From Psilocybe cubensis (Eukaryota), in assembly GCA_017499595.2 (NCBI GenBank), contig CM038998.1, positions 620,001 to 684,000 of the forward strand: a stretch of DNA of 64,000 nucleotides, in the 5' to 3' direction. The notes beneath the pieces are model-generated. The model was not told where the DNA came from and searched no databases. It saw nothing but the letters and a program-made list of their open reading frames with translations. Below are positions 1-36,661 of this stretch, in pieces. The position numbers and the translations under genes were made by a program. How positions within the stretch are numbered: position 1 is the first letter of the stretch; each line of letters starts with the position of its first letter.

Positions 1-2983
1 ATCGTCCCCTTCGTCCTCCTCGCCCGTCTGCGATGCAGACTCCGCGCCGCTCTGCGACGGCACGGACGACGCGTACACGCGCGAGAGCCGGTGCGATTTG
101 TCGGGGTCAGCGGACTGCGAGCGGTGTACGCGGTTCGCTGTGGCAGCGGTAGCAGCAGCAGCAGTAGAAGTAGAAGTGGCATTCGCATTCGCATTCGTGG
201 TGGTGGTGGTAGAATCGTTGGGATTAGCAGAGCTAGCAGCGTGTTCGTTGGCCATGGGCGTAGCAGTAGCTGGTGTCGGAGGCACACCACCGTCCGCGTC
301 TAAAGTACCAGGAGCAGAGACAGACACTTCCTGCGCCCCGTCCTGATCCTGATCCCGAGCCCGAGCCTGAGCCTGAGCCTCTTCGTCAGCACGTATAGGA
401 GACCCATCCGCATCATCACCCCCCGGTCCATTCTGTGATACCACAAGATCCAGATCAGGCTGCACACCTGTCGCTGTCGACGGAGATGTTGTAGGAGCGG
501 CAGTGGTCGTAACGGCACTGTCGTCCGTAGCGTTATTTAACTTTGTCGGATGCTGCTGCTGCTGCTGATGCTGATGTTGCGAGTTATCATTCTCCACGTC
601 CATTTCCTCTTCTTCGATGATACCGCCGGCCACACGACCATGATCGCCCTCGCCCTCGCCTTCGGGGTGATCAAGCTCCATGAGCTGATCAATATCCTTC
701 TCCGCAAAAAATGCCGACTCGACCTCCCTCGTCCTGCCTTTTTCCCTCGCATGTACATTCACATTCACATTCACATTCTCCTTATTCTTCTTCTCCTTCT
801 CCTTCTCCTTCTCCTTATCCTTAGAACCATGCCCATGTCCATGTCCATGTCCATGTCCATGCGCCGCCAAATCCGACCTAACACGCTTAATCGCCCTCTC
901 CACTCTCACACTCTCCAAATCATCCGTGCGGACCCTCACAAACCTCTTCCACACCCGATCCATCCTCAACACATGCGTGTTCGAGATCGTCGTCAAATAC
1001 GCAGCGATCGCAGTCGACGACGGCGTGGCGTTCGTGTGCGCGTGGTGGCCTGTAGTAGTATGCGACTCGGACGTCTCATTGTCCTCTTTCGAGACGACAC
1101 CATCCTTATCAAGCGCATCAGAGGACGACACAGTCGACGCTAGATTCGTCGTGGACGGCGCAGCAGACGACCCATTCACATCCCCTCCAATACTCCCACT
1201 AACACTCCCACTAAGCGTCATCGCACCAAACGAGCCAAACGGATCGGGGCCCTCCTTCGCAGGCGTCATCACAAGCGGCGTATTGCCCCCCTTCTTCCCC
1301 ATCCCCATCCCAATCCCCATACTCATCCCCTTCCCACCCCCAGGCGACGCCAACCGCGAAAGCGTGTTCAAAAACGTCGACTTTCGTTTCTTCTCCTTCC
1401 CCTTCTTCTGCTGCGCGGGGGGCAGACCGGCGGGGTCGATGGGCAACGATGGAATTTTGAGGCCCGGGTGCGCACTGCGCAGTTTCACGTCGAGCTCGAT
1501 GAGCTCCGCGGCGGTGCGTGTGAGCGTCAGGTTGTGTGTGGGTGCTGGTGTGTGCAGCGTCGTCGCGGGTGTTATCACGGGTGATGGTGGTCGGTGCATG
1601 GGTGTAGACGGGCGCGAGTAGGTGCGCGGCGGCCGTGGTGGTGGTGATGGCAGAGATAGCAAGATCGGCGCGGGTGGTGGTTGTGTTGGTGGTGGTGGTG
1701 AGAGACGACGAGCGGGTGTTGGATTCGACGATGTCGGCAGCGTGGATAGCGACACGGACGATGATGCGGATGATGACGACGACGATGACGTCGGTGTGGG
1801 CGGGACAAAGTGGATGGTAAAAGTAGACGGAGACATCGTACAGTGGGAAAAACCAAAAGCGCCACGATGAGATGATGGGAGTGTAAAAGACAGAAAGAGG
1901 ACAAGGCAGGATTGAAAAAGCAACAAGCAAGTCAGCAAGCGTGTTCAATCCAGAGAGAAAACAACGGAGAAGTTAGGAAAAGTATGAATGAATGAGAGTT
2001 TCCCGATATATCAGCCCTCGAGCGGAAACCCACGCAGAGATATCAAAGAAGTGAATGCAAGCAGAAGCAAAGGTAAATCTAAAGTTGCAATCATGAAAAG
2101 CACAAGCCCTCTGCCCCAACAACATTGAACGAACCCATCATGAATCAGCGCACAACACCACAACACCAACAACAACATGCACCACGCGCAAGGCAACGCG
2201 CATACATGTAACACCGTGCATGCAACGCACAACGTAGCACGTATCATAAATTTATGACGATGCCTGTACATCATGGTCATGGATTCATGATCATGCCATG
2301 ACGATAAAGCGCGCCAATCCCAATCGATACCGATATCATCTACATCTAATTACAGCCGGAGCACCCTGTTTTTCAAGAGGGGCATCGAGCAGAGCATCGA
2401 CATCAATGCGGATGTTTCGATAACACCGCACCGCAGATATGAAGATATGAAAGATGAAAATAAAAAAATAGAAAAGGAACCATCATCGTCATCAAAAAAA
2501 GAAAAAACAAAAGATTTCCAACGGAAAGGAGGTTCAAGCGGGTCGTATGAACGCAGCAGGCAGCAAGCAGACAAACGGTCTTTGCAAAGCGACAAAGATT
2601 GAGGTATGAATGAATGAATGAATGAATGAAGTGAAGAATGAAATGAGGTGCACCACACAAAATGTCAAAACGTCAAAACGCCAACACCAAAAAAACCAAA
2701 AAAGACAATAAAAAAATAAAAGAAACGAGAAAAACCACTCACTCTTAACATAAAGACACCACACAAACGCATCATACGGCGTCTCCGCAACACTGACGCT
2801 CCATGGCCCATCCTGTGTGTCCATCCGCACTGGACCCCGCCGTCCCGCTGTCGCCGATGCAGAAACAAAGGCGGACGCAGAAGCAGAGGCAGAGGCGGAT
2901 GCGGAGGGAGAGACGGAGGCGGAAGCGGATGCAGAAGCGGACGTAGGGCCGGTCGAGGGCAAGTTCGTGTCTAGAGCTTTCAT
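1..2983 (-). CDS. 5' part of a conserved agaricomycete PX-like-domain protein, probably an AGC-family (Akt/Ypk/Sch9-like) kinase whose kinase domain lies left of the window. Exon 1 2983-2743, intron 2742-1545, exon 2 from 1544 off the edge
   Basis: Splicing A|GTGAGT...CAG|CA joins DTQDGPWSVSVAETPYDAFVWCLYVK to TPTHNLTLTRTAAELIELDVKL in frame. Downstream is IAAYLTTISNTHVLRMDRVWKRFVRVRTDDLESVRVERAIKRVRSDLAAH. The kinase identity is recalled from similar N-termini; no kinase domain is visible here. Confidence 0.6.
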
Positions 2984-3399: not shown

Positions 3400-4700
3400 T
3401 AGTAGTAGCAGTGGGTGGTAGTAATAGCAGTGGGTAGTGGGCGGTGGTGGTGGTGGTGGTAGTCAACTCCGTAGCGGTAGCGGTAGCGGAGTGGCACGAA
3501 AAGTTTCCCAACTCCTATCGAATCGAATCGAATCGAATCGAATCCAACACCAAAAGACCCTCTTTTCTCTTAACTTCACTCCTTCTCACTTATCTCCTAT
3601 CCCTTTTTCCTCGCTTTCCTTCTATCCTTTCTTTTCCTTCCAATCTAAACCAATCCTATCCAATTTCACCCCTCAACGGTCAACACCGAACCCAACCAAC
3701 GAAACAGAAACAAAGCAAAGCTGGAGGATGGAGCAGCAGAGGAAAGCGACGTGTCGTGTCGACGTCTCTATTACTGTCAACGCCAACGTCGATGTCGATG
3801 TCGATGTCGATGATGTGGTAGTAGCGATAGTGGTGCAAGCGCAAACACAACCAGAACCACCGTCACCGTTCACGTTCCCGTTCCCGTTCCCGTTCAACAG
3901 TCACACTCCTCTCAAACGTAACCAAGCACGCACACACGCACGCAAGTACGTACAGCTCAGCAAATAGGGAATAGGGAGGGGTGCGTGGGTAGGTGCGTGG
4001 GGGTGTGGATATTGGATATTACGATGCTACGATCCGCCAATCCGGCTCTGATGTCTGAATCAGGCTGAGGTGAGGTGAGGCGAGGCGAGGCGAGGCGAGG
4101 TGAGGTGAGTCAGGCAACTGGGTGGGTATGTGCGAATGTGAATGCAAATGCGAATATAAGCGAAAGTGTAAGTATAAGCGTAAGCGTAAGTGTAAGTACA
4201 AGTAGACGAACGACAAACAAACAAACAAACAAACGCACGAACGAACGAGATTGACTTGCCGAATGAATGAATGAATGAATGACTGGACGATTGGATGGGA
4301 CGACTGAACAGAATGTAATTTGTCTGAACTGGCAACAGCCTGAGCTACGACCCTAGCGACAAGACGCAGTGTGACTGTGGGAAACCAGTTACAACGGCAA
4401 ACCACCCAACGAAAAACTTGAATGAAAAATGAAAAATCGTGTTTTGCTTCGTGGGCGGCAGGCGGTAGGCGGTGGGCGGGTTGCAACCGTCTTGAGACTT
4501 AAACTTGTCCCGGCACAATTACCAGCTATACAAGGAGAGGAACTGAACAAACAGTCAAACAGTCGGGTCGGGTTGGGTATGGTGTTATGCTGTGTTATGT
4601 GGTGTCGTGTGATGGTATTGTGTGCAAGATAAAAAAGATAAAAAGATATGTGCTGTGATATGATATGATATGATTGTGATTTGATTGTGATTATGATGGA
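3400..4700. repeat. Microsatellite-dense upstream region
   Basis: Runs of (TCGAA)n about 3517-3543, (GATGTC)n, (TTCCCG)n, (GAGGT/GAGGC)n about 4067-4108, (AAAC)n, (GAAT)n, (GATAT)n. Confidence 0.9.
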
Positions 4701-7019: not shown

Positions 7020-8781
7020 TCACACCAAACATTGCCTCTTAGCTTTAGGTTGCGCAGCACTGGCATCCCTCTCACGTCCTCCATCTTCTTCTGCCTCTTT
7101 TTCATCAACTTTGAGAGGGCGCTTACTCGCACTGGCGGAGAGTCCATCCATATAGTTCAGTCGAGAGCTAGTAACAACTTTGTTATTTGCCTTTTCGTTC
7201 TTATCTTTCTTGGAAAAGTTGTACACATCTTTCGCTGAGCACTGTGGCATTTCGAAGAAATCCGGTGGATACCGACTGATCCTAGCACGCTTCCATAACG
7301 CGGGGTAGACTGGTGGCTTGGAGTCATTGTTCGGTGACTCCAATGCGGTAGGCGTTATACCAAGTGGCTGCATGCCTTCAGCTTCACGTCGTAGAAAAGT
7401 CGAAAACCACTTGTCGTCCGGGCTATCCCAATCAACCGTCGAAACAGGAGCAGGGCGCCGCTCGATTTTCAAGCGTTCGCGTAATCCGCCCTTTTTGGGA
7501 GGTTCGTAGTAGCGAGGATGAAACTCTTGACCAATAGTGGCGAAGACATCGTGCAAGCGAGATATATTGAATTTGCCCAGCGCAATGTCGACTCTATGTA
7601 TGGAACAGGCCATGATGGTGCAAATTTTTTGGGATCCTCCAATAACCTCTTTGTTTTCGGTGATGGTCATATCATTAAAGAGCGAGTCCATCTGTTTGTG
7701 AAGTTGCTCAGGGCCATGGTCGTGACGAGTATACCGGAGGACTTGGTATACGAGAACCCAAAAGATGGACTCCATATCATCCCCTAGGGAATGCATGACG
7801 ACGGGCTGAGACGAACGCGCCTGCAAAATCCTCGCAGAAATAAAACCCCAAGTACCCTATTCATGTCGTTATTATAATCTAGAACGAAGAAATGCAACGA
7901 ATACTAACTGTCTTTTGCAAATGCTTTTCACGCTTCTCGAGGAGCAAACACATATCCCAGTCAATGAGAACTCCTCTCCATTCCTTTGTCTCCTTATCCA
8001 TCACGATCATAATATTACTCGCGCTAATGTCTCTGTGTAAAATGCCTGCCTTGAAGGCTGCTTGAGCGGCTGGAGCGTAACAGTAAGTACAAATCTACAA
8101 GGTTAACCAGAAAAGAACATACCATCAACAACATCCGCAAGACATGAAAGGAGAACCTTGCACCAAGTGAACGTCGACAAATCTCGAGCAACGGTATTGA
8201 GCACAAGACGATGGCAAACCATAAATCCAAATCCAAAACGCTTGAATCGTCCACTATGGTTGAGACTGCCCCACCATTCCTGCGTCTCAGTCTTCAAATC
8301 ATCAACATCATTGCCAAGGCGCATGGACGCAATATTCGGAACTCCGTGTTCGTGAAGCCTTCGATATATATCAGCTTCAGGCGCTGTCCGCGCCGAATCC
8401 TCCTGCCACGAATCCTTCATGAAGCACATTTTTCTCTCTGACTTGTCGGGATGATCTAAAAAGGCCAGTGATCGTCTAGAGCCGCGGGTGAAAGGATTGA
8501 TGACACTAGGCCTGTATGCAGGTGCTGGGACAAAAAATGCTTCGGTTTGATTTATAGCTGAATCATTGACAGTGACGCGATAGAAATTCGACTCTTTCGC
8601 GGGTCTCCGAGGCCTGCCGTTGACATCGTTCTTGCGATGGCTGAATTTTGCACCTTCATGCCAGGACCGCTCGTAATAATTATCAAAAGCACTCGCCACA
8701 TCATCAGGAAGCGTTTGGGTCGGAACCCGAATGGCATTGGTATCGAATCCTCTTTGGCGGAGTGACAGTTGTCCAAAGCGA
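7020..8781 (-). pseudogene. 3' half of a fungal-type protein kinase (FunK1, Pkinase_fungal) gene interrupted by the KDZ element. Exons ~8781-8123, 8069-7910, ~7856-7020
   Basis: Motifs RFGQLSLRQRGFDT, FMKDSW, PEADIYRRLHEHGVPNI, HRLVL, ILHRDISASNIMI, GVLIDWD, KTGTWGFIS and HSLGDDMESIFWV, joined by GT-AG introns. Confidence 0.9.
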
Positions 8782-8790
8782 TGAAACTCA

Positions 8791-9159
8791 CTGGACTTTG
8801 TTTAAACATCGGTCTATGACATAAAAGGGCCGTTTAATCCCACGTGGGGTTTAAACCATGTTCATTCAAGTCTCTCTAGTCTATTTTGAACCATGTACTA
8901 GTTAGCTCTGAAATCATATACGGTTGGTGTACAAAAAAGTAGTCTATTAAAACAAAAATGACATAGAGACAAAGTAAAGTTAGAAGCATTCATCGCTGTT
9001 TAAACACAATCGACAATTAAACAGTCCAAAAAATTAAGCAATGTTTAAATGAACTGGTAAAATTAAACAGCTACAAAGGAATAAACAATGTTGAAGACGA
9101 CAGAGAAGATTAAACAGCAACCACAATTAAACGCTCTTTAAACCTGCGATGGATTCAAC
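8791..9159 (+). repeat. Left subterminal inverted repeat (369 bp)
   Basis: CTGGACTTTGTTTAAACATCGG...CTGCGATGGATTCAAC is the reverse complement of 20325-20693, with 3 mismatches found by eye. Confidence 0.95.
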
Positions 9160-9211
9160 AATGTTTAAAACTAAGATACAAATAAACGATGTTAATTGGG
9201 GCGAGGTGGAT

Positions 9212-11174
9212 TCAAGATGGCTTTTCCGGAGACGAAACTGGCTCCATATACCAAGTGTCCCTAAGCTTGCGCTTTTTGGGTGGTGGAAGAGAAGGATCTG
9301 TGACAAGCGCAGGTCCCAATGCAGCTTGCGTGCGCGGGCGGCCCGTACGTCGTACAGCTACAGGTGGTCCCTCCGTCCTAACTCTCTTTTTGGGCTTCTT
9401 CTTCGGTTTGATAGTGGCAGTGCTTGCAGCTGTGGTGGTAATATCATCACCGGCACCCTGTTTTGCAGAGTGGCCCTCCTTGGAGGCCGGAGAGCCTGCC
9501 GCCGATGGTCCAATGACAGTTTGAGGAACATTAGAGGACACATCTGTGTGTTGCATTGGAGGAGAGCATGACGGAAGAGGAGTCATGGGCGATAGTGAAG
9601 AAAGCGATGCACGAGGTGGTGTTTTCGGAGGTGGTGTTGAAAAACTAGCAGCCTGGTCAGAGGTAGGTGGCAAAAGTGAAGGGCGAGATGGAGTCTTCGC
9701 AGGTGGTGTCAAAAAATGGGCAACGTTAGTCAATCTTGATGGTGAAGATAAAGTCCCCGAAGGTGATGCATCATCGTAAGAGGGCGAGTGAGAACTTGGA
9801 GAAGGTTGCAATTTCTGTAACTCTGCTTGGCGCTGATGCTGCGCTATGCGGTCTTTCGAATAAAATTTGAACGGCGTGGCATCAGGTAGCAAACGCAGAT
9901 ATTTGGTTAGAGCCAGAATTTCGTCGGGTTCTAGCACTTGCGGGGACTTTAAGGCGCCTATTGGTAAATTGAATGTCTCTGTGTCGTAGTACATATCAGG
10001 GTTGGAATAAATCGCATCCCAGGGGATGGTCGCATCGCCATCTTGAGTATAGTCTATCGCAAAGTAAGTCAGTAAGGTGTTTACAAATGCTCCAAGATTG
10101 ACCTACGCCAGAGAGACAGAAAATAATCTTCGAGAATTAGAGCTGCAGACGATAGCGGTTGACCTTTCAAGTCAATAAATGGCAAGAGAGGGCAGCCGTT
10201 GGTGTCTCGCAGCAACCTAGTGCTGAGTTGGAGTTCTTGCCCTACAAAGGTTTGTCAGTATATCACAAGTAAATGACGACTAAAAGAATACCACTCACGA
10301 GGAAGAACTGACTTGGCATGATTGTTCCAGCGTTCCAGTGAAGCTGTATCATACTCAAATTTGCCATCGTCTATCAAAGCTCCTTCGTTGCTGTCGAATG
10401 CCGCGCTGACTTTGCCTCCAAAAATGTTGCCGCCTTTGCGAAATGCATATGATAGGGATAATACACATGAGCCGAGCTGTCCGCCGGTGAGCAGTCCTTC
10501 GAGGGCTTCCTGAGCCACACTGTCAAACTCTGCTCGATTGCTGCGAAGCATCGTCAGAACGTATCCTAAACAAGCAACATTGACTTACGCATCAATATCA
10601 TCCCTCATATGTCTAACTTTTTCCTCCCAAGCCTTGTGATCTTCTTTCGACCACAGTTGTTGAATTGCAATTTGACGAGCAGCTCCTCCAGGTATTCCCC
10701 GTTCCTGACTGATTTGGCGGTATAACGCCACAATTCTATCGTTGTTTTCGACAACAAAGTGGTCTCGAGGGGTGGCATTTGAAGAGAGTTGGAGAAAAGG
10801 AGTCTTGGCCGTGGATATAGTAGGAGTTTTTTGTAAACCCTTTTTCCCTTGCTTGACCTTTATGTCGTAGTTGAAGTGATTTGTCCACACACGTACTATG
10901 GCCTGACACGAATTGTAAGTAAGTCATAAAGAGAATTCATTCTACATACCGATGACCACTGTTTGAGAGTCTCGGTCTCGGATAACTTGCCCGCAAAAAT
11001 CTCCTCGGCGAGTAGAGAGTTGACAGTTTTGGCTTTCCAGTCTGATAGCTGCTTGCAGTGACCGCGCCATTCAGGATCAAGCTCCGCAACCTTGGCTCTG
11101 AATGCAGGTATGTATTCCTTGATGCGCGCCATCTGGGCATCCGAGAAAACGAATCTGGTGGCTTTGGCAGGCAT
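9212..11174 (-). CDS. Cargo gene A: uncharacterised 5-exon protein with an HMG-box-like segment and a GxPxLP...PWD...FKF C-terminal domain
   Basis: Four GT-AG introns join ORFs 10896-11174, 10585-10890, 10255-10551, a short exon (QELQ...EDYFLSLW) and 9212-9994 in frame. HMG-like stretch PRDHFVVENNDRIVALY...IQQLWSKEDHKAWEEK; P/S-rich, basic tail. Confidence 0.75.
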
Positions 11175-11441
11175 GAAGTCAGTCTAGTAAGTATACGTTG
11201 TAAGAAGGATCAGAGGTAGGGTAGGGGTCTGTACATACATATATAATGAAAAGTTATGACACCCTGCGCTTTGCCAGTGGCCTGATTAATCTCGAAATGA
11301 CCAGTTGTGGCCCATAATTCAGTAATGAGAAACGTTCTGAAAAGAATAGTATTCATCAGTGAATGGCACAGGTGGCCCAAATAGCCACTCGTACCAGTGC
11401 CTTAGAAAGTACACAACGGATCTAAAGGGCCACCAAAGGAA

Positions 11442-11777
11442 GCACCTGACGCCAAGTCGAGGTTGCGAGACCGACACAGAGTAAGGGCGGTATTGAGAGC
11501 GATGGTGATGAGAAAGATGGGGGTGCTGAAGCAACCGACGCAGAGTCGAGGTTGCGAGACCGACACAGAGTCGAGGTCGAGCGATGGTGATGATAAAGAT
11601 GGGGGTGCTGAAGCAACCGACGCAGAGTCGAGGTTGCGAGACCGACACAGAGTCGAGGCCTCATGAGCATGAGTAGGTATGGGCGGTATTGAGAGCGATG
11701 GTGATGAGAAAGATGGGGGGTGCTGAAGCAACCGACGCATAGTCAAGGTTGCGAGACCGACGCCAAGTCGAGGCCTC
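11442..11777 (-). repeat. Bulged-hairpin cluster 1 (about 8 units) upstream of cargo gene A
   Basis: Minus-strand units such as GCAACC-TC-GAC-TCTGC-GTC-GGTTGC, GACC-TC-GAC-TCTGT-GTC-GGTC and GAGGCC-TC-GAC-TTGGC-GTC-GGTCTC, within larger tandem repeats. Confidence 0.85.
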
Positions 11778-12006
11778 ATGAACATGGTGGTTGAGTGGTG
11801 AGTGGCGGGATGAAGGGTCGCATTACCAAATCGGACTCAATCACGTGACCTGCACCCCCCAAGTCCAACTCAGAGTTGAACTTCGAGTCCGCTGTCTTTG
11901 CCCACTTTATTCCCCCTCTGCTTTTGCTCCTCATCGCCCGCCCTTCTTTTGCCCCCTTTATTATTAACTGTACAACCAGGTAAGTATTTAGATTTTTAAT
12001 TTTCTG

Positions 12007-12200
12007 TGGACTCGACTTAAGGTCGTCCATGTGAACTCGACTATGCGTCGTTCACTTATTTTTTCCGTTTACTTTTTATGGACTCGACTTTATGTCGTCC
12101 ATGTGAACTCGACTATGCGTCGTTCACTTATTACTTCCGTTTACTTTTTATGGACTCGACTTAATGTCGTCCATATGAACTCGACTATGCGTCGTTCATA
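12007..12200 (+). repeat. Bulged-hairpin cluster 2 (6 units in three ~72-bp tandem repeats) upstream of cargo gene B
   Basis: TGGAC-TC-GAC-TTAAG-GTC-GTCCA alternating with GTGAAC-TC-GAC-TATGC-GTC-GTTCAC. Confidence 0.9.
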
Positions 12201-12251
12201 CATTTTCCCCCGTCAATCCAATGGATAACCGACACCGGATCCAGCAGAAAA

Positions 12252-14439
12252 ATGTCTCGCTGTATCACCCCTGAAGACCTGCTTAAAGATCCATCGATCC
12301 TTCTTCGAAAGAAAGGCCATGATTCCTCCGAGGGTGAGTTTCTGTTCTACAATTTCCAGTCTTTTTATCTATACTTTACCAGGTCTTCGCAGTTTTGAAG
12401 GCCAAGTTGGAGCCGTAGTGTGGGAAGGAAGTCATTTCGTTACAAGCCCGAACATGGATCATATCTGGGAGCCCCCCAGAGTATCCCGGATTACTTACAT
12501 GGAGGATATGCGGTACGGAGAACACGATCCCCTTCAATGGCCCCAACCCTTCATTGGGAGTTTTTGCTATCTTGCCGCCATTCGTCGAAGGCCCGACGAT
12601 CTTCGTGCAATCAATCGATTTTTTATAGCGTTTTATCGCTTAGAAGATTCTGACTTACTTGCGCAAGAAGGGGTTCTTAGCGGACTGTATACCTTGACTC
12701 CCCGATTGGTCTCCCTAGCGAAGAACTTTGTACAAAACAGAGTTATTGCAAAATCGAAAGAATATGAAAGCCAGGATGATGCACCCAAAAACGACATCTT
12801 GTTGAAGCTCCAACCGTCAATCCTTCGAACAGTCAATCATCTCGAAAACCTCCCAATGACACGACGAAAAATAAAATTCTTATTTGCCGAACTACAAAGA
12901 TATTTTCTGGAATTTACAGCCGCCTTTGAATACCTGACAATCTATCTCCCCAGGATCAAAGGTACTATGCCAGCTGCCACGGCGGCTAATAAAAAACTCA
13001 TTGGTGCTTTTGTTCAAACTGCGGCGGATGCGGACGACCTTTTCCGAGCGGGTATTCCAGTGTGGGTGATTCGTGAGGCCAAATGGGCAGGGAATGACCG
13101 TGTAGATTCGTTGTGCGAGGTACAGAAACCACAGGATTATCTTTGTCTGGACAGTGCTTTTTTGCATTTTCCAGTGGATTATCGTGACTCGTTGACCAGC
13201 CCGAACAAGTATATCACTTTCGGTCGATTCGCACGAGGCTTTCTTTCATACGGGGATGCATATAACCTGCGAGCGTACGAAGCTCCCATTCCGCAATCGA
13301 CCGGTTCAGAGCAGACCTCGTCAACCTTTAAAATAGGTCCTAGAGTGGCCACGAGCCGCGAGATCAGAAAATCAAAACAGCCGTGTAAGTCGCAATTCGT
13401 TTGAACATGAAGAAATTGTACCTCATTTATTACGATTATAGATCCTATACCACAGAGGCAGGATTTCTCAGAGCCGGTTAGTGTCTACTTACCACCATCT
13501 CAAGAAGCATGGGCCTCGGGGCTTTGCAAAATCAACACTGATGCCAAGAGGTCGCTCCTGGTCTCTCGTTCTATGGCTCAAGGTGGATACATTCTGCCTA
13601 ACCCTGAAGCCTTTATCGGAGTAACGACAAGCAACAAGCGCGAGTTATACATCACAAACTGGCTGAAGTACCGCTCGGCCCTCATGTATTGCCTTACAGA
13701 AAGCCAGGGACGGTGTCCGCTGAGTAGTCAACTGTGGCGAGATCTACTCAGACTCCCTGTGGATGCTCTCCCGTCTACCATAACTCAACCAGCCGCCACG
13801 GCATCGTCGTCGACAAGCACCCGAACATCTAGTAAAAGTTCTCAAAGGGGTGAGATTCTACAAAGAATTTTCGAAAACTTTGACTTTCATGCATCCGGAG
13901 TTGCAGTCAATGGTCACGAACACCAGGTCACGTGGCGAGGTCAAGCTCTGATAAAGGGCCAAGAACTGGATATAAACCTAGTACGAGAGGTGCTCTGGGA
14001 GTTATCAGAGCTCAACTTTCGGTTTGATCTCATTGCGTTGGACCATCATCTTTATCGTAGGACCCTCAAGGTTGAAAGAGAAGGCCAAATTCTCCAGTCT
14101 CGTGAAGACGATATTCTCCTTTGTTTCGCAGGTGGGCCCTTGGGCACATCTCCATTTCTCGCACACATCGCCAATGCGGATATCGGCATTGCCGCTGGTG
14201 ATTGGATGGTTCGTCGCGCATACATCATATACCTGCGGAATGCCATGCGAGACTGGGAGGGTTTTGACTCCGCGGCCAAGCAGTGCCATGAAGTAGATCT
14301 GTTCACCAGATCTTCGGATATTTTATCTTTTGCGGAACACCAATATTTGCTCTTTGAGGTTGTACTGGTCCGACTTTTTATTCAGCTTTTCTATGATGCA
14401 TTTGGTCGTGCGCCCGTCATACCACGTCGATTACATTGA
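12252..14439 (+). CDS. Cargo gene B: uncharacterised ~693-aa protein. Exons 12252-12333, 12383-13384, 13442-14439
   Basis: Splices in frame without stops. Motifs VTSPN, RYGEHDPLQWPQPF, AGIPVWVIR, LPPSQEAWASGL, LWELSELNFRFDLIALD and FGRAPVIP recall a repetitive agaricomycete family of unknown function. Confidence 0.8.
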
Positions 14440-14712
14440 ACTTGTACTGTTATTGTAGCTAATTTTCTTGAATTTTTTGGACCTTACAAGTTTTTCAATA
14501 TATGTATTACCTTTTTTATCTCTATAAACATCAAGCTGTTGATTTTGGACTCAAATCCCAATCAATAATGTCTAAATAAGGCCGATCGAATATTTGTTAG
14601 AATGTTGATTGAATTTCGTCCATGACCAAAATCGGAACAAAAGCGGAGTTTCAATTTTGAAATCCCTCGTTGCCATGTCGTTCCACTTTTCGTTCTCATC
14701 ATTTTCCACATT

Positions 14713-15131
14713 GACCTCGACTGTGTGTCGGTCGTGTAGGCTTGACTGTGCGTCGCCTACTGTCTGCTCTTCTCGTCATACTTGCTCTTCTCGCCATACT
14801 CGGGCGCTCCTCATCCTGGGTCCTGTCCTTCCGCCTTTCTCTCTGGTACCCCTGGCCATTGGTTTTCAAACATCCCCTTGACCTCGACTTTGTGTCGGTC
14901 GTATAGGCTCGACTTTGCGTCGCCTAACATCCCCTTGACCTCGACTGTGCGTCGGTCGTGTAGGCTTGACTGAGCGTTGCCTACTGTCTGCTCTTCTCGC
15001 CATACTCGGGCGCTCCTCATCCTGTGTCCTGTCCTTCCGCCTTTCTCTCTGGTACCCCTGGCCATTGGTCTTCAAACATCCCCTTGACCTCGACTATGTG
15101 TCGGTCGTATAGGCTTGACTTTGCGTCGCCT
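14713..15131 (+). repeat. Bulged-hairpin cluster 3 (8 units) upstream of cargo gene C
   Basis: GACC-TC-GAC-TGTGT-GTC-GGTC paired with (G)TAGGC-TT/TC-GAC-TGTGC-GTC-GCCTA(C), four pairs, interleaved with a duplicated ~110-bp block. Confidence 0.9.
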
Positions 15132-15387
15132 GCTACCTACCTTTCTCAAACAGGAACTCGGCGCCTTTCTCCGCAAACTTCTCCAAATGGCCAGGCCACG
15201 CTTTGTCGGTGGCCGCGACTCTTCAATCTTGGCGCAAACTTGGCGCAAACTTCTCTAGTTGGTTAGGCCACGATTCGTCGGTGGCCACTATTCTTCAATA
15301 TTATGCAGTGGCATGATGGGAGGGGTATACGGACACGCAGGTGCGTGTTTAAATTCAAAGACACACTGGCCATCCCACTAATTCTTT

Positions 15388-16612
15388 ATGCCTCCAGCTC
15401 CTCCTCCTGCATCGTTTGGACCTCTCTCTGGTGCGCATCCTGAGTACCGGGGGATCTACAAAACCGCTGCTTTGGAGAAAGTGAAACAAAACATCAAACT
15501 CTTTCTGTTACAACACACCAAAAACCCAGGACCGCAGAAACCTCACAAGCCTGACCATCCTGAATCTAGACCCCAACTTTGTTTCGGGGGTGGATCCCAT
15601 CGCGCTAATGCTGGACGGTGGCTTCAAGTTTGCCAGAAGCAATCGTGCTATATGCATCAACGACCGCGGTTTGTTACCGAACCTTTATCACCAGAGGTTT
15701 TGTCTGGACTTGATGCCCTGTTTGCCATTCAAGATGAAATTCATGCGTATATGCCACGTACCATGACATCAGCTAACAACCCAGTTGCTCGACCATGTGT
15801 TGCTTCACCATCATCTTCCTTGCCCCCTTCGTCTGCACCCAGCGCGTCCCCTGCCTTGTCCCCTTCGCCTGCGCTTAGCTCGTCTCCTTGTAGGCGCAAT
15901 AGGGCTGTACCGGCTGTTTTCTCCACACCCACATCACAACCCTCTTCCTCCAAGCGTCGTCTGTCGCCACCGCCTTTTGCATCAACTTCACAAGCTTCAT
16001 CCTCCAAGCGTCGTCTGTCGCCACCGCCTTTCACACCAACTTCGCAAGCTTCATCCTCCAAGCGTCCTCTTTTGCCATTGCCTGAGCCTGACTGTGTTTC
16101 CCCTTTCAAACGACGTAAAATTCTTGATGTATTGGATGAGCTACCACCACCTAACGTGCCTCAAGGTATAGACGAGGCGGAAATACGGCGCCGAATCAAT
16201 ATCTTGCTTGATGCCCTTGAACCTGCGGCTGCGCCAACTAGCCCCCCAGTAGCACCTCCTGCACGGTCTCCCTCCACGCCTGAAGCAGTAGACGAGGCAG
16301 AGATATTTGACCTTACTCGACCGGTTCTTGTTTTATTTATGTTGCAGGTTGGGTTATTGCTTTATTGTTTTATAATTCAATGCTAATTCATTGGAATAGG
16401 ATCATAGTCAATTTGAAGAAACCCTTTACCCGCGCCATGATGGTCGCCTCTGTCTGAACGACTACAAGCTTCTTCTAGGACGCCAGGGGTTTGAACAAGG
16501 TTTATACATTGAGTATTTTTGCTTCAACACAGATGAATGGACCCCTTGTCTGTGGGCCACCCGGCACCTGATCTCAGGCCACGATCAAATTTTGCGATTC
16601 CGTTATGCATAG
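15388..16612 (+). CDS. Cargo gene C: ~390-aa protein with a GRF-zinc-finger-like N-terminal motif, S/P-rich linker and small C-terminal domain. Exons 15388-16347, 16400-16612
   Basis: HKPDH...LCFGGGSHRANAGRWLQVCQKQSC...RFVT; repeats SSSKRRLSPPPF; exon 2 DHSQFEETLYP...LRFRYA* is in frame. Confidence 0.7.
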
Positions 16613-16857: not shown

Positions 16858-19800
16858 ATGAAGCTAACCGCCAAAACACTTTTGAAGCACCGCGCGCAAC
16901 AAGAAGCCGAAAACGAGAGCCCTAAACGCCTCCGACCCACTGCACCTCATCTCACGGAATATACCTGTCAAAATTCAACTTCTATTACCCATACAACTAT
17001 TCTTGCCGACAACGGACATATACCTTCTCTGCAGTCCAAGGAGAAGGTTGAGGCCAAATTACCTCCCAGTGTCTCGGAACCTCCGGCTAAGCCTTCGGAG
17101 GTTGGTTGTTTTCACTTTGGAATTTTCCTGGTGCAACGTTGCTAATTAATATTGTGCACAGCTTACCGAGGAGCTTCAAGCATTCCAGGATAACAAAGAC
17201 GAACTTTTAGACTATCTTTTTGAGCGAGAACACCATCCTCTCATTGGAACACCCTGCCAATGTGGTCAGGGAACACGTTTAGTCTGCTGCACGGAATGTC
17301 TGGGACACAATGCCACTTGTCGTCTCTGCTTTATCGCCGCTCATCTCTCAATGCCATGCCACTGGGCTTTGGTTTGGCAAGAAGGGGAACACGGTGGATT
17401 CTTTGTGAAGCGAGACATATCGCAACTTATTCCAGGTGGCAATTTTGCCATCCCTCTTGGTCATGGAGGTCTTCGGTGTCCGGGCCCAGAAACCGAAGAA
17501 GAAAACGTGTTCTTCCAGATAATTGACCACAATGGTGTTCACGATACTCGCGTGCACTTCTGTACATGCCTTGGCCGGCCAAATCGTGTACGGCAACTCA
17601 TCCAGTTCGGTTTTTTCCCTGCGACACTCAAACAGCCAAAAATGGCATTCACACTCACAGTCCTCAAGCAATTCCACCTGCACCATCTTGAATCAAAGGA
17701 ATCAGCTTACGATTTTATTGGGGCTCTTCGGCGGCTGACCGATAACATGTTTGCAGCCAGTACCACCAATCCTTATCCCCAATTTCTACGGGTAATGCGC
17801 TTTTGGCGTGTTTTGATTGCTACAAAACGTCTGGGTCAAGCCCACGGTATTGACCAGTTGCTTCCTCATCGGCCACCAGGCAATCTGCTTGTGTTTTGTC
17901 CGGCTTGCCCCGAGGCCGGGCTTAATATGGAGAAGAATTGGGACCAGACACCTAAGGAATTCAGTCATTTAAACCAGATGCAACTTACCCTCGACGGAAA
18001 TTTTCACGCCAACAGATACAACAAAAATAGTTCTGATGACGATTATTCATTATATGAAGGACGTGCCTACTATCCCACTGATTCCGATTTTAAATCTTAT
18101 CTGCGTTCTTTACCTGCTCAAGACATTGCCGACAAGATTGATTGCCCTATCAAAGCTGTGAAGAATCGCAATCTTGTTATGGAGAATCTTTCGGAGACGG
18201 GTATAATCAATGTTCAGTGCCCACATGTCATAGTTGTGTCAACTGTGGATCTTCAACGTGGTGAAAGATTTGCTAACACAGATTATGCTGTGGCCCTGGC
18301 GCTCCGCCGGATTAGAGACACAGGAAAGAACAACAGTGACCAGTATCTTACCTGGCTGGCAGCGTGGATATCGTATGACATGGTGTGCTCTTACTGGGTG
18401 AACATTGTGTCACGTTTCAAAGTCTACTTCCCTGATCTGGTCGAAATTGTCAAACGTCTTTCGTTTTTAATTCCCCTTGTTCATGTTCATAATCACAAAG
18501 AGAATTGTGAATACCTTTATTCATCTGCGTATCAATCAGGCGCGGGACATTTCCATGGCGAAACAGCAGAACACGAATGGGTTGAACTTAATCAATTGGC
18601 ACCCCAAGTCCGTCAAATGAACAATGGCCATCGTCAAGACACCCTGATTGACCACCACGGGGATTGGAATTTCAAGAAAATGGCGAATATGGCCTCGTCG
18701 CTAGAGACAGACATTGTCCATTCCCGGAAGATTTTTCACAAAAAACGCGATGACTTTATTGCAAAGACAGCGCTGTATTCGGATCGTGCCCCGTTATGGA
18801 ATTGCCTTGATCGTGAACTGAGAACGGTTAGCGCAGACAAAGAGATTCAGTGCGTATTCCGACACAAGACAGGAAAAGGTGAGCGATAATCAGCTCGATA
18901 TTTAACATATCTCATTCTTGCAGTTCCTTCTCAGGCCAAAATATACGAAGGATTGGTTGACAGATTGAAGAAATTGGCCGACAAATCAGACAACACATTT
19001 TTGAATATGGAAAGTTCTGTACGTCTAATCAATGAGGGCATTATCATTGAACGAAAACAGTATGTGGTTTATATGTCCATTTATAAGCATCTCATGAGTA
19101 AGATAGACAGGAGTTGGCGTCAAAATTAGCATCTGAGGAATATCCCATGGCTCCGAAGGAAATGCTCAGTCGTCGTACCAAGCTAGCCAAACTTATCAAA
19201 GGATGGAAGACTCTGCAGCAGGATGTCATGGGCACTGCTCTGTGTAGTGTGGAAACTTCGTCAATTGATAAACCAGAATGCACAAAACTCTATCTTCCAT
19301 CTTCATTCTCGGCTACTGATCGTGCAAAATATGATCTGGAAGGTCTTGCGGCAGACGAGCTTCTCTTACGGAAAGGAAATATCTTTGATACCATTCGCAA
19401 CATTCAAGATACATCGAAAACACTATCCTCGATGCGTACTGAGAGGCAACAAAACGACCGTGGACAGACTGCTCGGACACGGTCAAAGTCGAAATTAGAA
19501 GATGTAGAACGCCTTCTAAGCCTGCAAATCCACATATATAATCTCTGTCGGCAAGCTCTTGTGTCCCTAGGCGGTGATGAATACTCCAGCATGTTCCCAG
19601 AAATGACTGTAGCCGACACGTACTGGGTACCTACCCATCTTCGACGTGAAATTGGTACGTCAAGAAAGTCAGATGGTCGGATATTCAACCCGGGTATTAC
19701 TGGCGGGGCGCAAGGGAGAGCTCCGGGTGTGTCTAATTATCTTGAGTCCACCATGGATGTGATACAAACACAAGGGTCCAAACCCAAACCTAGGAACGAC

Positions 19801-25006: not shown

Positions 25007-26314
25007 ATGCATTATCTACATTCACTAGCTTGCGCTTTGGCGCTTGCTCCCTCTGTTGCGTTTGCTGCACCTGCCTCGTCAGGCTTCCTGGAGAATCCGT
25101 ACATCGGCAAGGAAGCATACGCAAACCAGGAATACGCGAATAAACTGGAAGAAACCATCCAGTATTTTAACGAATTAAATGACGACCTTAATGCGGCAAG
25201 GACGAGGACAGTCCAGAAAATCCCTACCTTTGCTTGGATATCGGCTTCATCAGACGTAAGCTTTTATATATTATGCAAAGAATATTTATAATGGTCCTTT
25301 GGTTTCTAGGTCGACAAAATAGAGGGTCTTGTCCAGGAAACTCTCGCCGCTCAGATAGAGACAAAAAAGCAGCAGATTCTGCAACTCGTGGTTTATAACT
25401 TGCCTGACCGCGACTGCTCCGCCGGCGCTTCTGACGGGGAGTTCAAACTCGATGAAGATGGCCTCAGCAAGTACAAAAATTACATTGACAGTACGTATTC
25501 GCAGCCTTTCAATTTTGCTAGGCTGATTCCCATGACCATACTAGCTATTGCCAATGAACTGAGCACCCCCGATGCTGAAAAGATCAACTTTGTTGTCATC
25601 CTTGAACCTGACTCGCTCGCAAATGTTGTTACCAGCCTGGGCGTTCCCAGCTGCGCAAAAGCTGCCCCTGCCTACAAAGAGGGAATCTCGTACGCCATTG
25701 CGAAACTCCAGCTCCCTAATCTCTCCATCTACATCGACGCTGCTAACGGAGGCTGGCTCGGCTGGGACGAGAACCTCAAACCTACCGCCACCTTGCTCGC
25801 CGAAATCCTCCAGAGGGCTCAGGAGATCAAAGCTGGATCCACAGTCCGCGGCGTCGCTATCAACGTCTCCAACTTCAACGAATACCTCGCCCTCGTCCGC
25901 GAGAATTTTACGGAGCTGTCAAATAGCTGGGATGAAAGTCACTATGCCCAGTCACTTGCGCCACACCTCGAGGAAGCCGGCTTCCCCGCTCACTTCATCG
26001 TCGACCAGACGCGCGCGGGCAGGGGCGGCATCCGCACCGAATGGGGCCAGTGGTGTAACGTACGAGGCGCAGGCTTCGGTACACGCCCGACGGCGGACCA
26101 GGCGGTGCTGCAGAATCCGTATGTGGACGCTATTGTGTGGGTTAAGCCTGGAGGCGAGTCTGATGGTACGTCGGATCGCAATGCTTCCCGTTTTGCTGAG
26201 ACTTGCGCGGGGCCGGTGGCGCATGTCCCTGCGCCTGAAGCTGGGTCATGGTTCAACGAGTACGCTGCAAATTTGGTTATGTTGGCCAACCCTGAGTTAG
26301 AACCAACGTTCTAG
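25007..26314 (+). CDS. Secreted GH6 cellulase (cellobiohydrolase II family) without CBM1. Exons 25007-25255, 25310-25490, 25545-26314
   Basis: Signal peptide followed directly by NPYIGK; GH6 motifs VYNLPDRDC, ILEPDSL, YIDAANGGWLGW, WGQWCN, VWVKPGGESDG, PAPEAGSWF. Confidence 0.95.
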
Positions 26315-32085: not shown

Positions 32086-33627
32086 ATGAACTCGTCTCCG
32101 CCTCAGACAGTGTCAGAGCCGATCTATCTCCCACCGCCCCCAGCGCCAGCAGTCGCTCCTCAAGGGCCCACACAGCTCGCGAGGACCGACTCTGCGACGA
32201 GCTTTTCGTCAGAGGAGGACGCGTCGATGAGCCCGAGTCCTGTGGCTGTCATGAACAGCGCGCGGCGCACTCGTAAACGGTTCACGAACACCCAGCTCAC
32301 AATGCTCGAGAATCTCTTCCACCTCAATTCACACCCGTCGCGCGAGGATCGCGAGGCGGTCGCCAGAGACGGCGGCATGTACGTGATTTTTTCTCTCTCA
32401 CCCCCTTTTCTTTTTCTCGTCGATGAGGCCCCTATCGGCACTGTTTATGTTATACTATACTCGCGACGCGTTTTTTTATCTTTAATTTGCCAACGATGGT
32501 TCTGATTTCTGACACACGCGTTTCTCTCTCCTTTTTTTAACCTACCCGGCGGCTCCGTCGTATGTAGGGAGACCAAATCTGTGACGATCTGGTTCCAGAA
32601 TAAACGGCAGACGGAGCGCAAGACAGCTGCGTCGAACAACAATAACAACAACAACAACGGTGCGAACGGGGGCAGCTCACACGGCGCCACGTCGCACGCC
32701 GTGCCCAACATCACCAGCACCATCCACACATTCAGCCTGCACGGCGAGGGCGCACACGGGCAGGGGCCCTCCTCCCGCACCGCCTCGCCGCCATTCAGCA
32801 TCAGCAGCCGCAGCAGCATAACCTCGGCGTCGATATGCACCGCAACGACCACAGCCTACTCGTCCTCGCGGCCGTCGCTCGACCGCGTCGCCTCGCGCTC
32901 GGAGCTGCGCGCAGCGGCCCCGCGCACGCCGTCCCGCCGCCCCGCCCACCCAGGCACAGGCGCGATATGGGACAACATGCCCTCGTCCCCGCTCGCGCCG
33001 CCCATCAGCCCGCCTGCCCGCGAGTTTATCGATTTTGGCAAAAATGCGCGCACGCGCCGCACGCTTGAGTGGGCGTGTGCGGCTGCGAGGCTGGTGGATA
33101 AGGATGGGTATGCGAGTGGGATGAGCGCTGGGTTTGGTGCGGGCGGGGGTAGCGGGGGCATGTATGCGTCGTCTTCGGCGCCTGCTGCGCCGGTTAGGCC
33201 ACGTGCAAGGACGGTGTCGAGGGAGAAGATGCGTGTAAGGGCGGGCCCAAGCCAACACCACCAGTCGCACTATTCGTACTCTCGGGATCCTAATGGTGCT
33301 GCCTCAGATAGCATCTCCAGCTCGCGCAGCCGCGAGCGGGACACATACGCTCCCGCGCACACGCACTCGTACGTGCGTTCGCGCGATACGGATATGGATC
33401 TCACGGACGAGGAGGACCACGAGGCGATCACGCCGCCGAGCACTTGGGGGAAGGATGACAGGCGATGGACGCCCGCTGGCGCCGGCGAGGGCAGGCCGAC
33501 GAGTCTGCTGGCGATGACGGAGGCGGCGAAGGGCGGGATGTCGCCGAGGGATATTCGGGCGCGGGTGGATGATGATGATATGTTCAGGGCGGCGCTTGCG
33601 CTGTGTGGGCTTGGGCGGAGGACGTAA
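32086..33627 (+). CDS. Homeodomain transcription factor (non-mating-type; Yox1-like by inference). Exons 32086-32378, 32568-33627
   Basis: Spliced homeodomain RRTRKRFTNTQLTMLENLFHLNSHPSREDREAVARDGGMETKSVTIWFQNKRQTERK; short motifs RTLEWAC and C-terminal AALALCGL. Confidence 0.9.
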
Positions 33628-35331: not shown

Positions 35332-36661
35332 CTAGTATGTCGGCGGCAGCTCGGGGTTAGCCAGCCTGACCAAATTCGCAGCATACTCATTGAACCACGA
35401 GCCAGCTTCAGGCGCCGGAACATGCGCAACAGGCCCCGCACACGTCTCAGAAAACCTCGGCGACCCACGATCAGACGTGCCGTCCGACTCGCCTCCCGGC
35501 TTAACCCACACAATCGCGTCCACGTACTGGTTCTGCAGCACACCCTGGTCGGATGTAGGGCGCGTGCCGAAGCCTGCGTTGCGCACGTTGCACCATTGGC
35601 CCCATTCCGTGCGGATGCCGCCCCTGCCCGCGCGCGTCTGGTCGACGATGAAGTGCGCGGGGAAGCCGGCCTGCTCGAGGTGCGGCGCGAGCGACTGGGC
35701 GTAGTGGCTCTCGTCCCAGCTGTTCGAGTACTCCGTGAACGGCTCGCGCACGCGCGCGATGTACTCGTTGAAATTGGACACGTTGATCGCGACGCCGCGG
35801 ACCGACGCCGATGAGTTGATCGCGCGGGCTTGTCGCAGGATCTCGGCGAGGATGGTCGCGGTGGGACGCAGGTTCGAGTCCCAGCCGAGCCAGCCGCCGT
35901 TCGCGGCGTCGATGTAGAGGGAGACGTTGGGGTGTTGGAGCTTGGCGATGGCGTAGGCGATGCCTTCTTTGTAGGCTGGCGCGGCTCTCGAGCAGGCGGG
36001 GACGTTCGAGCCGGTGACGATGTTGGCGACGGAATCGGGCTCGAGGATGACGACGAAGTTGATATTTCTCGCTTCGGCGGTGTTCAGTTCATTGGCGATG
36101 TCTGTGGGTGTATACATTTAAGCATAATAAACATGGTGGATTGAAAGGCTGGGAATCACGTACTGTCAATGTATCTTTTGTACTTGTTGAGCCCGTCGTT
36201 GTCGAGTTGGAACTCTCCGGCTGAAGCGCCGGCGGAGCAGTCGCGGTTAGGCAGGTTGTAAACCACGAGCTGTAGAATTTGCTGCCTCCTCGTCGCTGTC
36301 TGTGCAGCGAGAGTCTCGCTGATGAGCCCCCTTATTTTGTATACCTAAAGTCCGACAACAAGCCATGTGTTAGTTTCGAAGCATTCTTCGTATATTAGCA
36401 AATAAAACGTACATCTGATGAAACGGATATCCAAGCAAAGGTGGGGATTTTCTGAACTGTCCTCGTCCTTGCCGCATTTTGGTAGTCGTTCCTCTGGTTG
36501 AAGTACTGGATGGTCTGATCCAGCTTCCTTGCGTATTCCTGGTTTGCATAGCCTTCCTTTCCGATGTATGGATTTCCCTGGAAGCCGGATATCGAAGGTG
36601 CAGCGAAGACAACGGAAGGAGCAAGCGCCAATGCACAGGCGAGAGCTTGTAGATAACGCAT
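35332..36661 (-). CDS. Second secreted GH6 cellulase without CBM1, paralog of 25007-26314. Exons 36661-36413, 36344-36164, 36101-35332
   Basis: Same exon sizes, intron positions and catalytic motifs (YNLPNRDC, LEPDSV, KPGGESDG). Confidence 0.95.

Follow-up and report, generated by a model that had tools for sequence, protein, structure and literature searches.

Hairpin arrays and their genes at a KDZ transposase locus

We analyzed a 64,000-nucleotide (nt) stretch of the Psilocybe cubensis genome (contig CM038998.1, positions 620,001 to 684,000), referred to here as the window, which is fungal DNA with short introns and contains three arrays of small bulged hairpins, each lying upstream of and in sense orientation to one of three genes (A, B, and C) in the neighborhood of a KDZ transposase gene. 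A preliminary description of the sequence had counted about 22 hairpins in three clusters, and this count held up: the interval 11441–15134 contains 21 complete bulged hairpin units, as counted by a script that tolerates one mismatch in the core, with 7 in array 1, 6 in array 2, and 8 in array 3, and in addition one truncated remnant. Each unit consists of an arm of 4–6 nt, the dinucleotide TC or TT, GAC, a loop of the form TNNNN, GTC, and an arm complementary to the first.

Within the arrays, the units occur as pairs of two types, a and b. Array 1 (11441..11778, minus strand) lies in sense orientation to gene A, with 267 nt between the end of the array and the ATG; it holds three a/b pairs, in which the a units have a GACC or GAGGCC arm and the b units a GCAACC arm, as well as a b unit at 11441–11467 with a decayed 3′ arm and, adjoining it, the truncated a remnant. 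Array 2 (12005..12200, plus strand) has the orientation of gene B, and 52 nt separate its end from the ATG of that gene; its three a/b pairs (a, TGGAC; b, GTGAAC) are separated by T-rich spacers of 24 nt. Array 3 (14710..15134, plus strand) is sense to gene C and has four a/b pairs (a, GACC arm; b, GTAGGC arm) embedded in a C+T-rich repeat of about 205 nt, each copy of which contains a reverse CCAAT. According to Tandem Repeats Finder every array is a tandem duplication (periods 82/115, 72 with 2.8 copies for array 2, and 57), so that the 21 units represent only about six independent arm types, namely GACC or GAGGCC, GCAACC, TGGAC, GTGAAC, GACC again, and GTAGGC. The arrays have only the hairpin pairs in common, their spacers having no shared sequence. 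Arrays 1 and 3 have identical a arms, whereas their b arms differ at three of six base pairs, all of which are compensated.

Several smaller features accompany the arrays. The a/b junction of array 2 reads ATGTGA, a start codon followed by a stop codon, in two copies (12029–12034 and 12101–12106) and ATATGA in the third, and a 17-codon upstream open reading frame (ORF) that is out of frame with gene B begins at 12221. A second kind of palindrome is found between array 3 and the start of gene C (15186–15300, plus strand), where two 40-nt repeats have GGCCAC...GTGGCC arms and a 9-nt loop with TTTGTCG-like letters; a GTGGC...GCCAC hairpin also lies between array 1 and the start codon of gene A (11373–11398), and TGGCCA/GGCCAC words are common in the upstream regions of genes C and A. 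In two DNA-like sequencing runs, every difference across 4.8 kb is a transition, and the four differences in array 1 (11573, 11637, 11644, and 11759) are all CpG transitions; these four come from short contigs compatible with more than one copy of the repeat and may therefore not be true alleles.

Gene A (7023..11174, minus strand, ATG at 11174) encodes a FunK1-type kinase, and its first exons are 100% identical to a 1,088-amino acid (aa) P. cubensis protein with Pkinase and Pkinase_fungal domains; just before the ATG, an apparent 55-nt intron (GTATGT...TAG) can be recognized by eye. Gene B (12252..14439, plus strand) is an orphan of about 730 aa modeled from reading frames only, with an inferred ATG at 12252, a 54-nt intron at 12329–12382, and a further intron near 13402–13450. 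It has 21 homologues described as "hypothetical" and matches no Pfam family; a model of its N-terminal half by AlphaFold (predicted local distance difference test score 66.5) has no fold match in PDB at E ≤ 0.001, and its C-terminal half has no usable match in the protein Atlas. Gene C (15316..16609, plus strand) is a small orphan whose start is either at 15388 or, with a 57-nt GTGCGT...CAG intron, at 15316; it has a conserved N-terminal stretch of about 120–165 aa and 20 homologues, all of them standalone proteins of 86–330 aa. Beyond the kinase part of A, no Pfam family was matched by genes A–C. The coding region of gene C also includes a 54-nt tandem repeat (2.9 copies, 15924–16077) that encodes a Ser/Pro-rich repeat with a KRR motif. 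A public 837-aa P. cubensis gene model (P0166, 14323–16609) fuses the C-terminal half of B to C, with exons that cross array 3 and use the 57-nt GTGCGT...CAG intron; this model may be a prediction artifact or reflect a read-through transcript.

The 5′ part of the KDZ transposase gene (16859..18889, plus strand) follows gene C, and a KDZ transposase with a CxC domain is thus present as a possible carrier: the ORF at 17150–18886 matches the Pfam models KDZ (E 1.4e-46) and CxC2 (E 1.7e-29). The apparent start of this gene is at 16859, and its own upstream region of about 250 bp contains no hairpin unit. A-like, B, and C proteins with 95–98% identity to those of the window are encoded in a second P. 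cubensis copy under successive locus tags of another contig (JR316_0012746-48), indicating that A, B, and C stay together in at least two copies; the locus is present as a single copy in the two DNA-like runs. No RNA run was listed for 10800–15600, and two runs guessed to be RNA gave no coverage there, which has no bearing on expression. Genes A–C are probably part of a repeated, mobile unit that encloses arrays 1 and 2, and the one observation suggesting that they might be cargo of a KDZ element is that they are consecutive in this second, 2–5% diverged copy.

Unit anatomy, arm pairing, and recurrence in a second fungus

The core pattern GACTNNNNGTC has 33 matches in the window compared with 6.5 ± 2.9 in shuffled sequences, none of the 100 shuffles reaching 33, and 20 of these matches lie inside 11448–15127, all on the gene-sense strand of their own cluster. 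Alignment of the 21 units bore out the constant bulge, GAC/GTC stem, and 5-nt loop with a leading T that had been noted previously: GAC is present in all units and GTC in all but one, which has GTT (14959–14985), the loop begins with T throughout, and the bulge is TC in 17 units and TT in 4. When the units of the metagenomic contig L073 described below are included in a 27-column alignment, GAC, the first T of the loop, and the GT of GTC are invariant, and all 32 units from the two fungi have a 2-nt 5′ bulge and a T at loop position 1, whereas position 5 of the loop is never A. The bulge can be drawn equally well as CT ahead of a 4-bp CGAC/GTCG stem. The arm pairs of the window are GCAACC/GGTTGC, GAGGCC/GGTCTC (with one G-T), (G/A)TGGAC/GTCCAT, GTGAAC/GTTCAC, (T)TGACC/GGTC(GT), and GTAGGC/GCCTAC. 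A double change to ATGAAC/GTTCAT at 12174–12200, reported earlier, is real, and its 3′ change coincides with the very edge of the tandem array. Read in the sense direction, a precedes b in each of the three arrays, and the two cores of a pair are exactly 25 nt apart in 10 of 10 pairs, instead of the 22–25 nt first estimated. The b loops are TNTGC and the a loops TNTGT, or TTAAG and variants of it.

To assess the pairing of the arms, covariation statistics were calculated on 25 distinct rows from the window and L073 under the named structure and compared with 500 shuffles; counts were made with and without a third candidate locus, L119 (discussed below), and the figures given here exclude it. 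Paired cells amount to 95.6% compared with 80.2 ± 1.6% in shuffles, double-change cells number 46 compared with 14.8 ± 4.2, and the covariation score is 0.573 compared with 0.259, with none of the 500 shuffles reaching any of these values, although the kinship of rows by duplication inflates the counts of paired and double-change cells. In controls with slid partners, 24–52% of cells are paired. These results, together with the new arm pairs found in L073, support the earlier proposal that selection acts on pairing and not on the sequence of the arms.

A covariance model was then run over the whole window with filters off, a scan that the preliminary description had proposed, and it recovered the 21 units only (E ≤ 0.03), all on the sense strand; ten of them matched full-length with 33.7–39.2 bits and the other eleven with 15.7–29.6 bits. 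Because the next match has only 14.5 bits (E 0.07), there is no unit elsewhere in the 64 kb and none before the transposase gene, in agreement with the original observation that the hairpins are in sense orientation before the three non-transposase genes and absent before the KDZ gene.

L073 is a soil-metagenome contig from a different Agaricales fungus that contains 11 units in three arrays (minus strand, 1512–1620; plus strand, 2074–2155; plus strand, 3908–4016). All 11 units have the design of the window units and score 35–38 bits; they consist of a 5-bp arm, a 2-nt bulge, CGAC, TTTGC, GTCG, and the complementary arm, with a period of 27–28 nt, and their arm pairs, (A/G)CGAG/CTCGT, ACGAC/GTCGT, and TTGAC/GTCAA, are new. 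The layout also equals that of the window, with a divergent pair of arrays about 450 bp apart followed by a directly oriented third one, and the array segments of L073 are all nearly identical to one another. No match to the proteins of the window was found in L073. The contig encodes the host protein eIF2B-epsilon, which has at most 76–78% identity to that of named species (76% to Pluteus, 62% to Psilocybe); the gene is 5′-truncated, comprising only residues ~375–737 from the 3′ end of an intron about 40 nt after an array segment, and a direct copy of this segment lies on each side of the fragment. We considered that the L073 segment might be a small inserted element and rejected this, as inspection by eye revealed no target duplication and the contig lacks the 5′ part of eIF2B-epsilon. 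An exon-like stretch at 1270–1406 (minus strand), located downstream of the minus-strand array, encodes a VVVLGGG-type dinucleotide-binding motif and ends with a GTAAGT donor; it lacks an in-frame ATG, matches no Pfam family, and may be a second 5′-truncated captured gene.

The metagenome scan in which L073 was found used a two-core pattern and returned at least 120 loci; among the matches listed, 118 loci are bacterial DNA rich in G+C or else repeats of other kinds that lack bulged arms. For 123 other core-pattern loci the best model score was 25.6 bits among the matches listed, and, again among the matches listed, 7 of 857 cores in loci outside the family have 2-nt-bulged arms of at least 4, compared with 18 of 20 sense cores with 2-nt-bulged arms of 3 or more in the window. 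Scanning of a prokaryote collection gave 5 matches, none of them with arms, and of a viral collection 0. Locus L119 was set aside as probably unrelated, since it has one good hairpin and two other units that are unpaired in A+T-rich, animal-looking DNA. At 115–191 it contains a 25-nt tandem repeat, the first copy of which is a perfect bulged hairpin of the unit design, located at the presumed 3′ end of an opposite-strand reverse-transcriptase ORF of the long interspersed nuclear element type; the likeness is probably due to chance. L003, L072, L078, L097, L102, and L108 (also L025, L060, and L095) have arrays of GTCGAC words 5 nt apart that together form larger palindromes, and the low-G+C metagenome contigs of the L003 type may represent a different eukaryotic repeat family on a CGAC/GTCG core. 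We consider the hairpin units likely to be a real family of cis-elements selected for structure.

Pfam scans of 36 stop-to-stop ORFs in the window identified KDZ/CxC, fungal kinase, GH6, coatomer, and weak homeodomain matches, and no TET/JBP protein was detected by Pfam or by PDB sequence search. From about 25 kb onward the window contains host-type genes, including two GH6 genes and one for coatomer beta. The GH6 cellobiohydrolase-type ORFs (25310–26311, plus strand; 35332–36114, minus strand) are inverted and about 10 kb apart, and the G+C-rich stretch between them includes an ORF (32506–33624, plus strand) whose weak homeodomain match (E 0.004) does not reach the Pfam cut-off.

Active form of the units and competing explanations

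We tentatively favor the possibility that the units work as a protein-binding stem-loop on the sense transcript of genes A–C, in the 5′ leader or first intron. Each unit is a stem-loop of about 25 nt in which a lower stem of unconstrained sequence is followed by the 2-nt bulge on the 5′ side, the invariant (C)GAC/GTC(G) upper stem, and a pentaloop beginning with U/T, mostly UNUGY; two abutting hairpins constitute one module, and the modules have been multiplied into arrays by tandem duplication. The active form would be single-stranded nucleic acid of the sense strand, for which the best candidate is the primary transcript of A, B, and C, and the protein in question would recognize the constant apical part, the arms needing only to pair. 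The three non-transposase genes could thereby share a co- or post-transcriptional control that the transposase gene lacks. Transcription of the units, their binding by a protein, and an effect of this binding are steps that we infer.

Several lines of strand evidence are consistent with an RNA. The earlier remark that mispairs are G-T on the sense strand was substantiated by a hand tally of transition mispairs, which gave about 14 G-T events compared with about 4 A-C events (one-sided binomial ~0.015; 11 compared with 3 without single-nucleotide polymorphisms), with a split of 9 to 2 at the two core CpGs. A GTC is implied by the public gene model of the other copy at the position of the window's single GTT, and the latter is therefore a derived C-to-T change. 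The observed/expected ratio of CpG is unremarkable at 0.8–1.1, giving no sign of heavy decay by methylation. The asymmetry of the loop, with T at position 1 and never A at position 5, is ill-suited to a symmetric double-stranded DNA site. Random orientation relative to genes, which the preliminary description had named as evidence against its idea, was not observed, because all five arrays with a judgeable downstream gene point toward that gene. GTAAGT occurs 26 nt before array 2 and 18 nt before the first copy in L073, i.e., before two of six arrays, compared with a density in the window of 39 per 128 kb of strand (post-hoc P ~1e-3), and pyrimidine tracts with AG follow the arrays. By eye, a putative 5′ untranslated region intron of gene B (11980..12247, plus strand), with GTAAGT as its donor at 11980 and, at its other end, a pyrimidine tract and CAG at 12244/12247, would hold the whole of array 2. 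The predicted folding energy per unit is −5.7 to −10.0 kcal/mol as RNA and −3.1 to −5.9 kcal/mol as DNA, the latter being marginal for extrusion from a duplex.

A number of observations weigh against a transcript-borne operator. No nucleic-acid-binding domain was found in A, B, or C, and no RNA-binding domain in these or neighboring ORFs; a cmscan search of 11000–15600 on both strands (E ≤ 1) gave 0 matches to Rfam, including the iron-responsive element and the histone stem-loop. Two of the covariation measures show no excess, as base pairs with a double change number 6 compared with 4.5 in shuffles (65 of 500 reach this value) and further pair types 14 compared with 13.6 (275 of 500), and two loci, the window and L073, are known in all. 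The sense and antisense strands fold equally well. The G-T excess could stem from C-to-T deamination biased to the non-template strand; moreover, mispair events in tandem copies are not fully independent, and 3 of the 14 come from contigs placed on repeats. Transcription start sites and introns at the arrays were placed by eye, and reverse CCAAT boxes and C+T-rich tracts are interspersed in array 3, a C+T-rich tract following every array. Such boxes and tracts resemble fungal promoter DNA, and by this reasoning the units would be upstream of the transcription start site.

These last features are what would be expected if the units were instead a promoter element acting at the level of DNA before the three genes, with a host factor or the Cys-cluster domain of the KDZ transposase binding them either as duplex DNA or as hairpins that the non-template strand extrudes where the promoter is open or supercoiled. 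We regard this as rather unlikely. The arrays are 52–267 nt upstream of start codons, each long repeat of array 3 has its reverse CCAAT, the C+T-rich tracts are of the kind seen at fungal start sites, the divergent arrangement of A and B resembles a bidirectional promoter and is also the layout of L073, and both CpGs of the core are retained in most units. A protein that reads the duplex, however, gives no reason for the covariation of the arms or the sense-strand excess of G-T; as DNA hairpins the bulged 9-bp palindromes are weak (−3 to −6 kcal/mol), the spacing of cores over the window and L073 (25–28 nt) is not a whole number of helical turns, and the GTAAGT donors just upstream of two arrays suggest that those arrays are inside transcripts.

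Also improbable, in our judgment, is that the units are transposon ends, subterminal sites, or gene-capture sites, recognized by structure, on which the transposition or recombination machinery of the element acts and which mark the borders of captured segments in an attC-like or end-bypass-like manner. Such sites could account for the succession in L073 of an array, about 40 nt, and a 5′-truncated host gene, for the location of this fragment between two direct copies of the array segment and of gene B likewise between arrays 2 and 3, and for the constant 2-nt bulge, which recalls the extrahelical bases of attC. However, arrays 1 and 2 lie between A and B, the homologues of which are consecutive in the second P. 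cubensis copy, and these arrays are therefore internal and not terminal; there is no inverted partner array anywhere in the 64 kb, Pfam scans of the window ORFs revealed no tyrosine, serine, or HUH recombinase, the arrays have 6–8 units each and not one per cassette, no target-site duplication is visible by eye around the L073 segment, and the ends of Kyakuja elements are given as CA..TG without repeats in the accessible portion of PMC12730594. We hold it very unlikely that the units are structure-specific single-stranded DNA sites for the assembly or shuffling of cassettes by a eukaryotic cut-and-paste element, a counterpart of attC in which the cassettes would be gene B and the truncated eIF2B-epsilon fragment of L073 and the bulge would mark the active strand. 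We likewise give little credence to a mostly neutral origin, in which a short palindromic protein site, CGAC-N5-GTCG, was tandemly amplified and its flanking palindromy is kept not by selection but by a mutational bias, template switching within a strand serving to "correct" quasi-palindromes. Mutation by such template-switch correction is well established, every array arose by recent tandem duplication, the arm types known in all number only about nine, and the two covariation measures mentioned above are within the range of shuffles; yet correction should erase the bulge, which every one of the 32 units retains, the core, bulge position, and loop start are conserved between species in which a housekeeping protein is ~40% different, and a sense-strand bias of mispairs is not expected from template switching.

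Overall, the observations made originally stood and could be extended, whereas their interpretation is partly supported: selection on pairing, sense orientation, and the G-T excess speak for it, and the analogy to attC does not. The preliminary description knew of no such hairpins in KDZ elements, and in the portions of the literature covered by our searches, which included PMC11343200 and PMC12810828, we likewise found no description of them. The accessible portion of PMC12730594 makes no mention of hairpins, and the Kyakuja consensus sequences in its Data S1 might show or exclude arrays. The arrays and their recurrence in a second mushroom point to an undescribed control or recombination signal. 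KDZ, Plavaka, and other multi-gene mushroom transposons carry accessory genes, and to our knowledge nothing is known about the control of these genes. A shared, structure-selected signal located before three accessory genes and absent from the transposase gene offers a handle on how mushroom transposons coordinate or silence their passenger genes and on whether recognition of RNA or single-stranded DNA, which would be unusual for eukaryotic cut-and-paste elements, is used. Because the unit is small, sharply defined, and scannable, its distribution and partner protein can be sought with standard tools.

Comparison with known systems

Among the hairpins of mobile elements, the 3′ end of Helitrons has a single hairpin 10–12 nt before CTRR and accompanies a Rep/helicase gene; this candidate was rejected because the units are arrayed, no Rep/helicase domain was found by Pfam, and no CTRR follows the arrays by eye. 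Kyakuja-type elements are recognized by CA..TG ends with a 7-bp target duplication. The REP/RAYT and IS200/IS605 systems use bacterial bulged DNA hairpins with covarying arms that are read as single strands by an HUH Y1 transposase, and the units resemble these hairpins in being short and bulged with covarying arms, whereas no HUH Y1 transposase domain was found by Pfam among the window ORFs. The subterminal motifs of CACTA/En-Spm and other cut-and-paste elements (TnpA-type motifs, bound by a DNA-binding protein that the element encodes) are conserved in sequence and occur in both orientations within a few hundred bp of the ends, and the subterminal region of En/Spm doubles as promoter. In common with them, the locus has many copies of a short CpG-containing motif, some of them forming inverted pairs, in the context of a DNA transposon; in contrast to them, the arms covary, all 21 units are sense-oriented, arrays 1 and 2 are internal, and no partner array is present in the 64 kb.

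Integron attC sites are imperfect palindromes read by structure, with variable arms, fixed extrahelical bases, and one active strand. The units resemble them in being imperfect palindromes kept as structure, with the 2-nt 5′ bulge in 32 of 32 units and covarying arms, in adjoining genes of a mobile-element setting, and in having one strand distinguished. This is a resemblance only, and the analogy drawn in the preliminary description fails on two defining features of attC: no integrase-type (tyrosine) recombinase was found by Pfam in the 36 window ORFs, and the units form arrays of 6–8 upstream of ORFs in sense orientation, whereas attC is a single site per cassette, at the 3′ end of an ORF that lacks a promoter. 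The hairpins of the window are also much shorter, and the host is a eukaryote.

Hairpins that act in RNA provide the remaining comparisons. The A-repeat of Xist consists of a tandem G+C-rich core with two proposed short hairpins and U-rich spacers, and the layout of array 2, with its hairpin pairs and T-rich spacers, is similar; this analogy concerns architecture only, since Xist is a mammalian long non-coding RNA of unrelated sequence. Operators in transcript leaders are exemplified by the iron-responsive element with its iron regulatory protein and by the coat-protein hairpins of phages MS2 and PP7. The units differ from these in the sequences of bulge, loop, and upper stem, in being arrayed as 6–8 units in a/b pairs, in belonging to a fungal transposon-linked gene set, and in the lack of an Rfam match. 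They share with them a short hairpin with constant bulge and loop features and a lower stem that is free in sequence and nevertheless paired, the use of one element by several genes, and, as proposed here, a location in the 5′ part of the regulated transcript.

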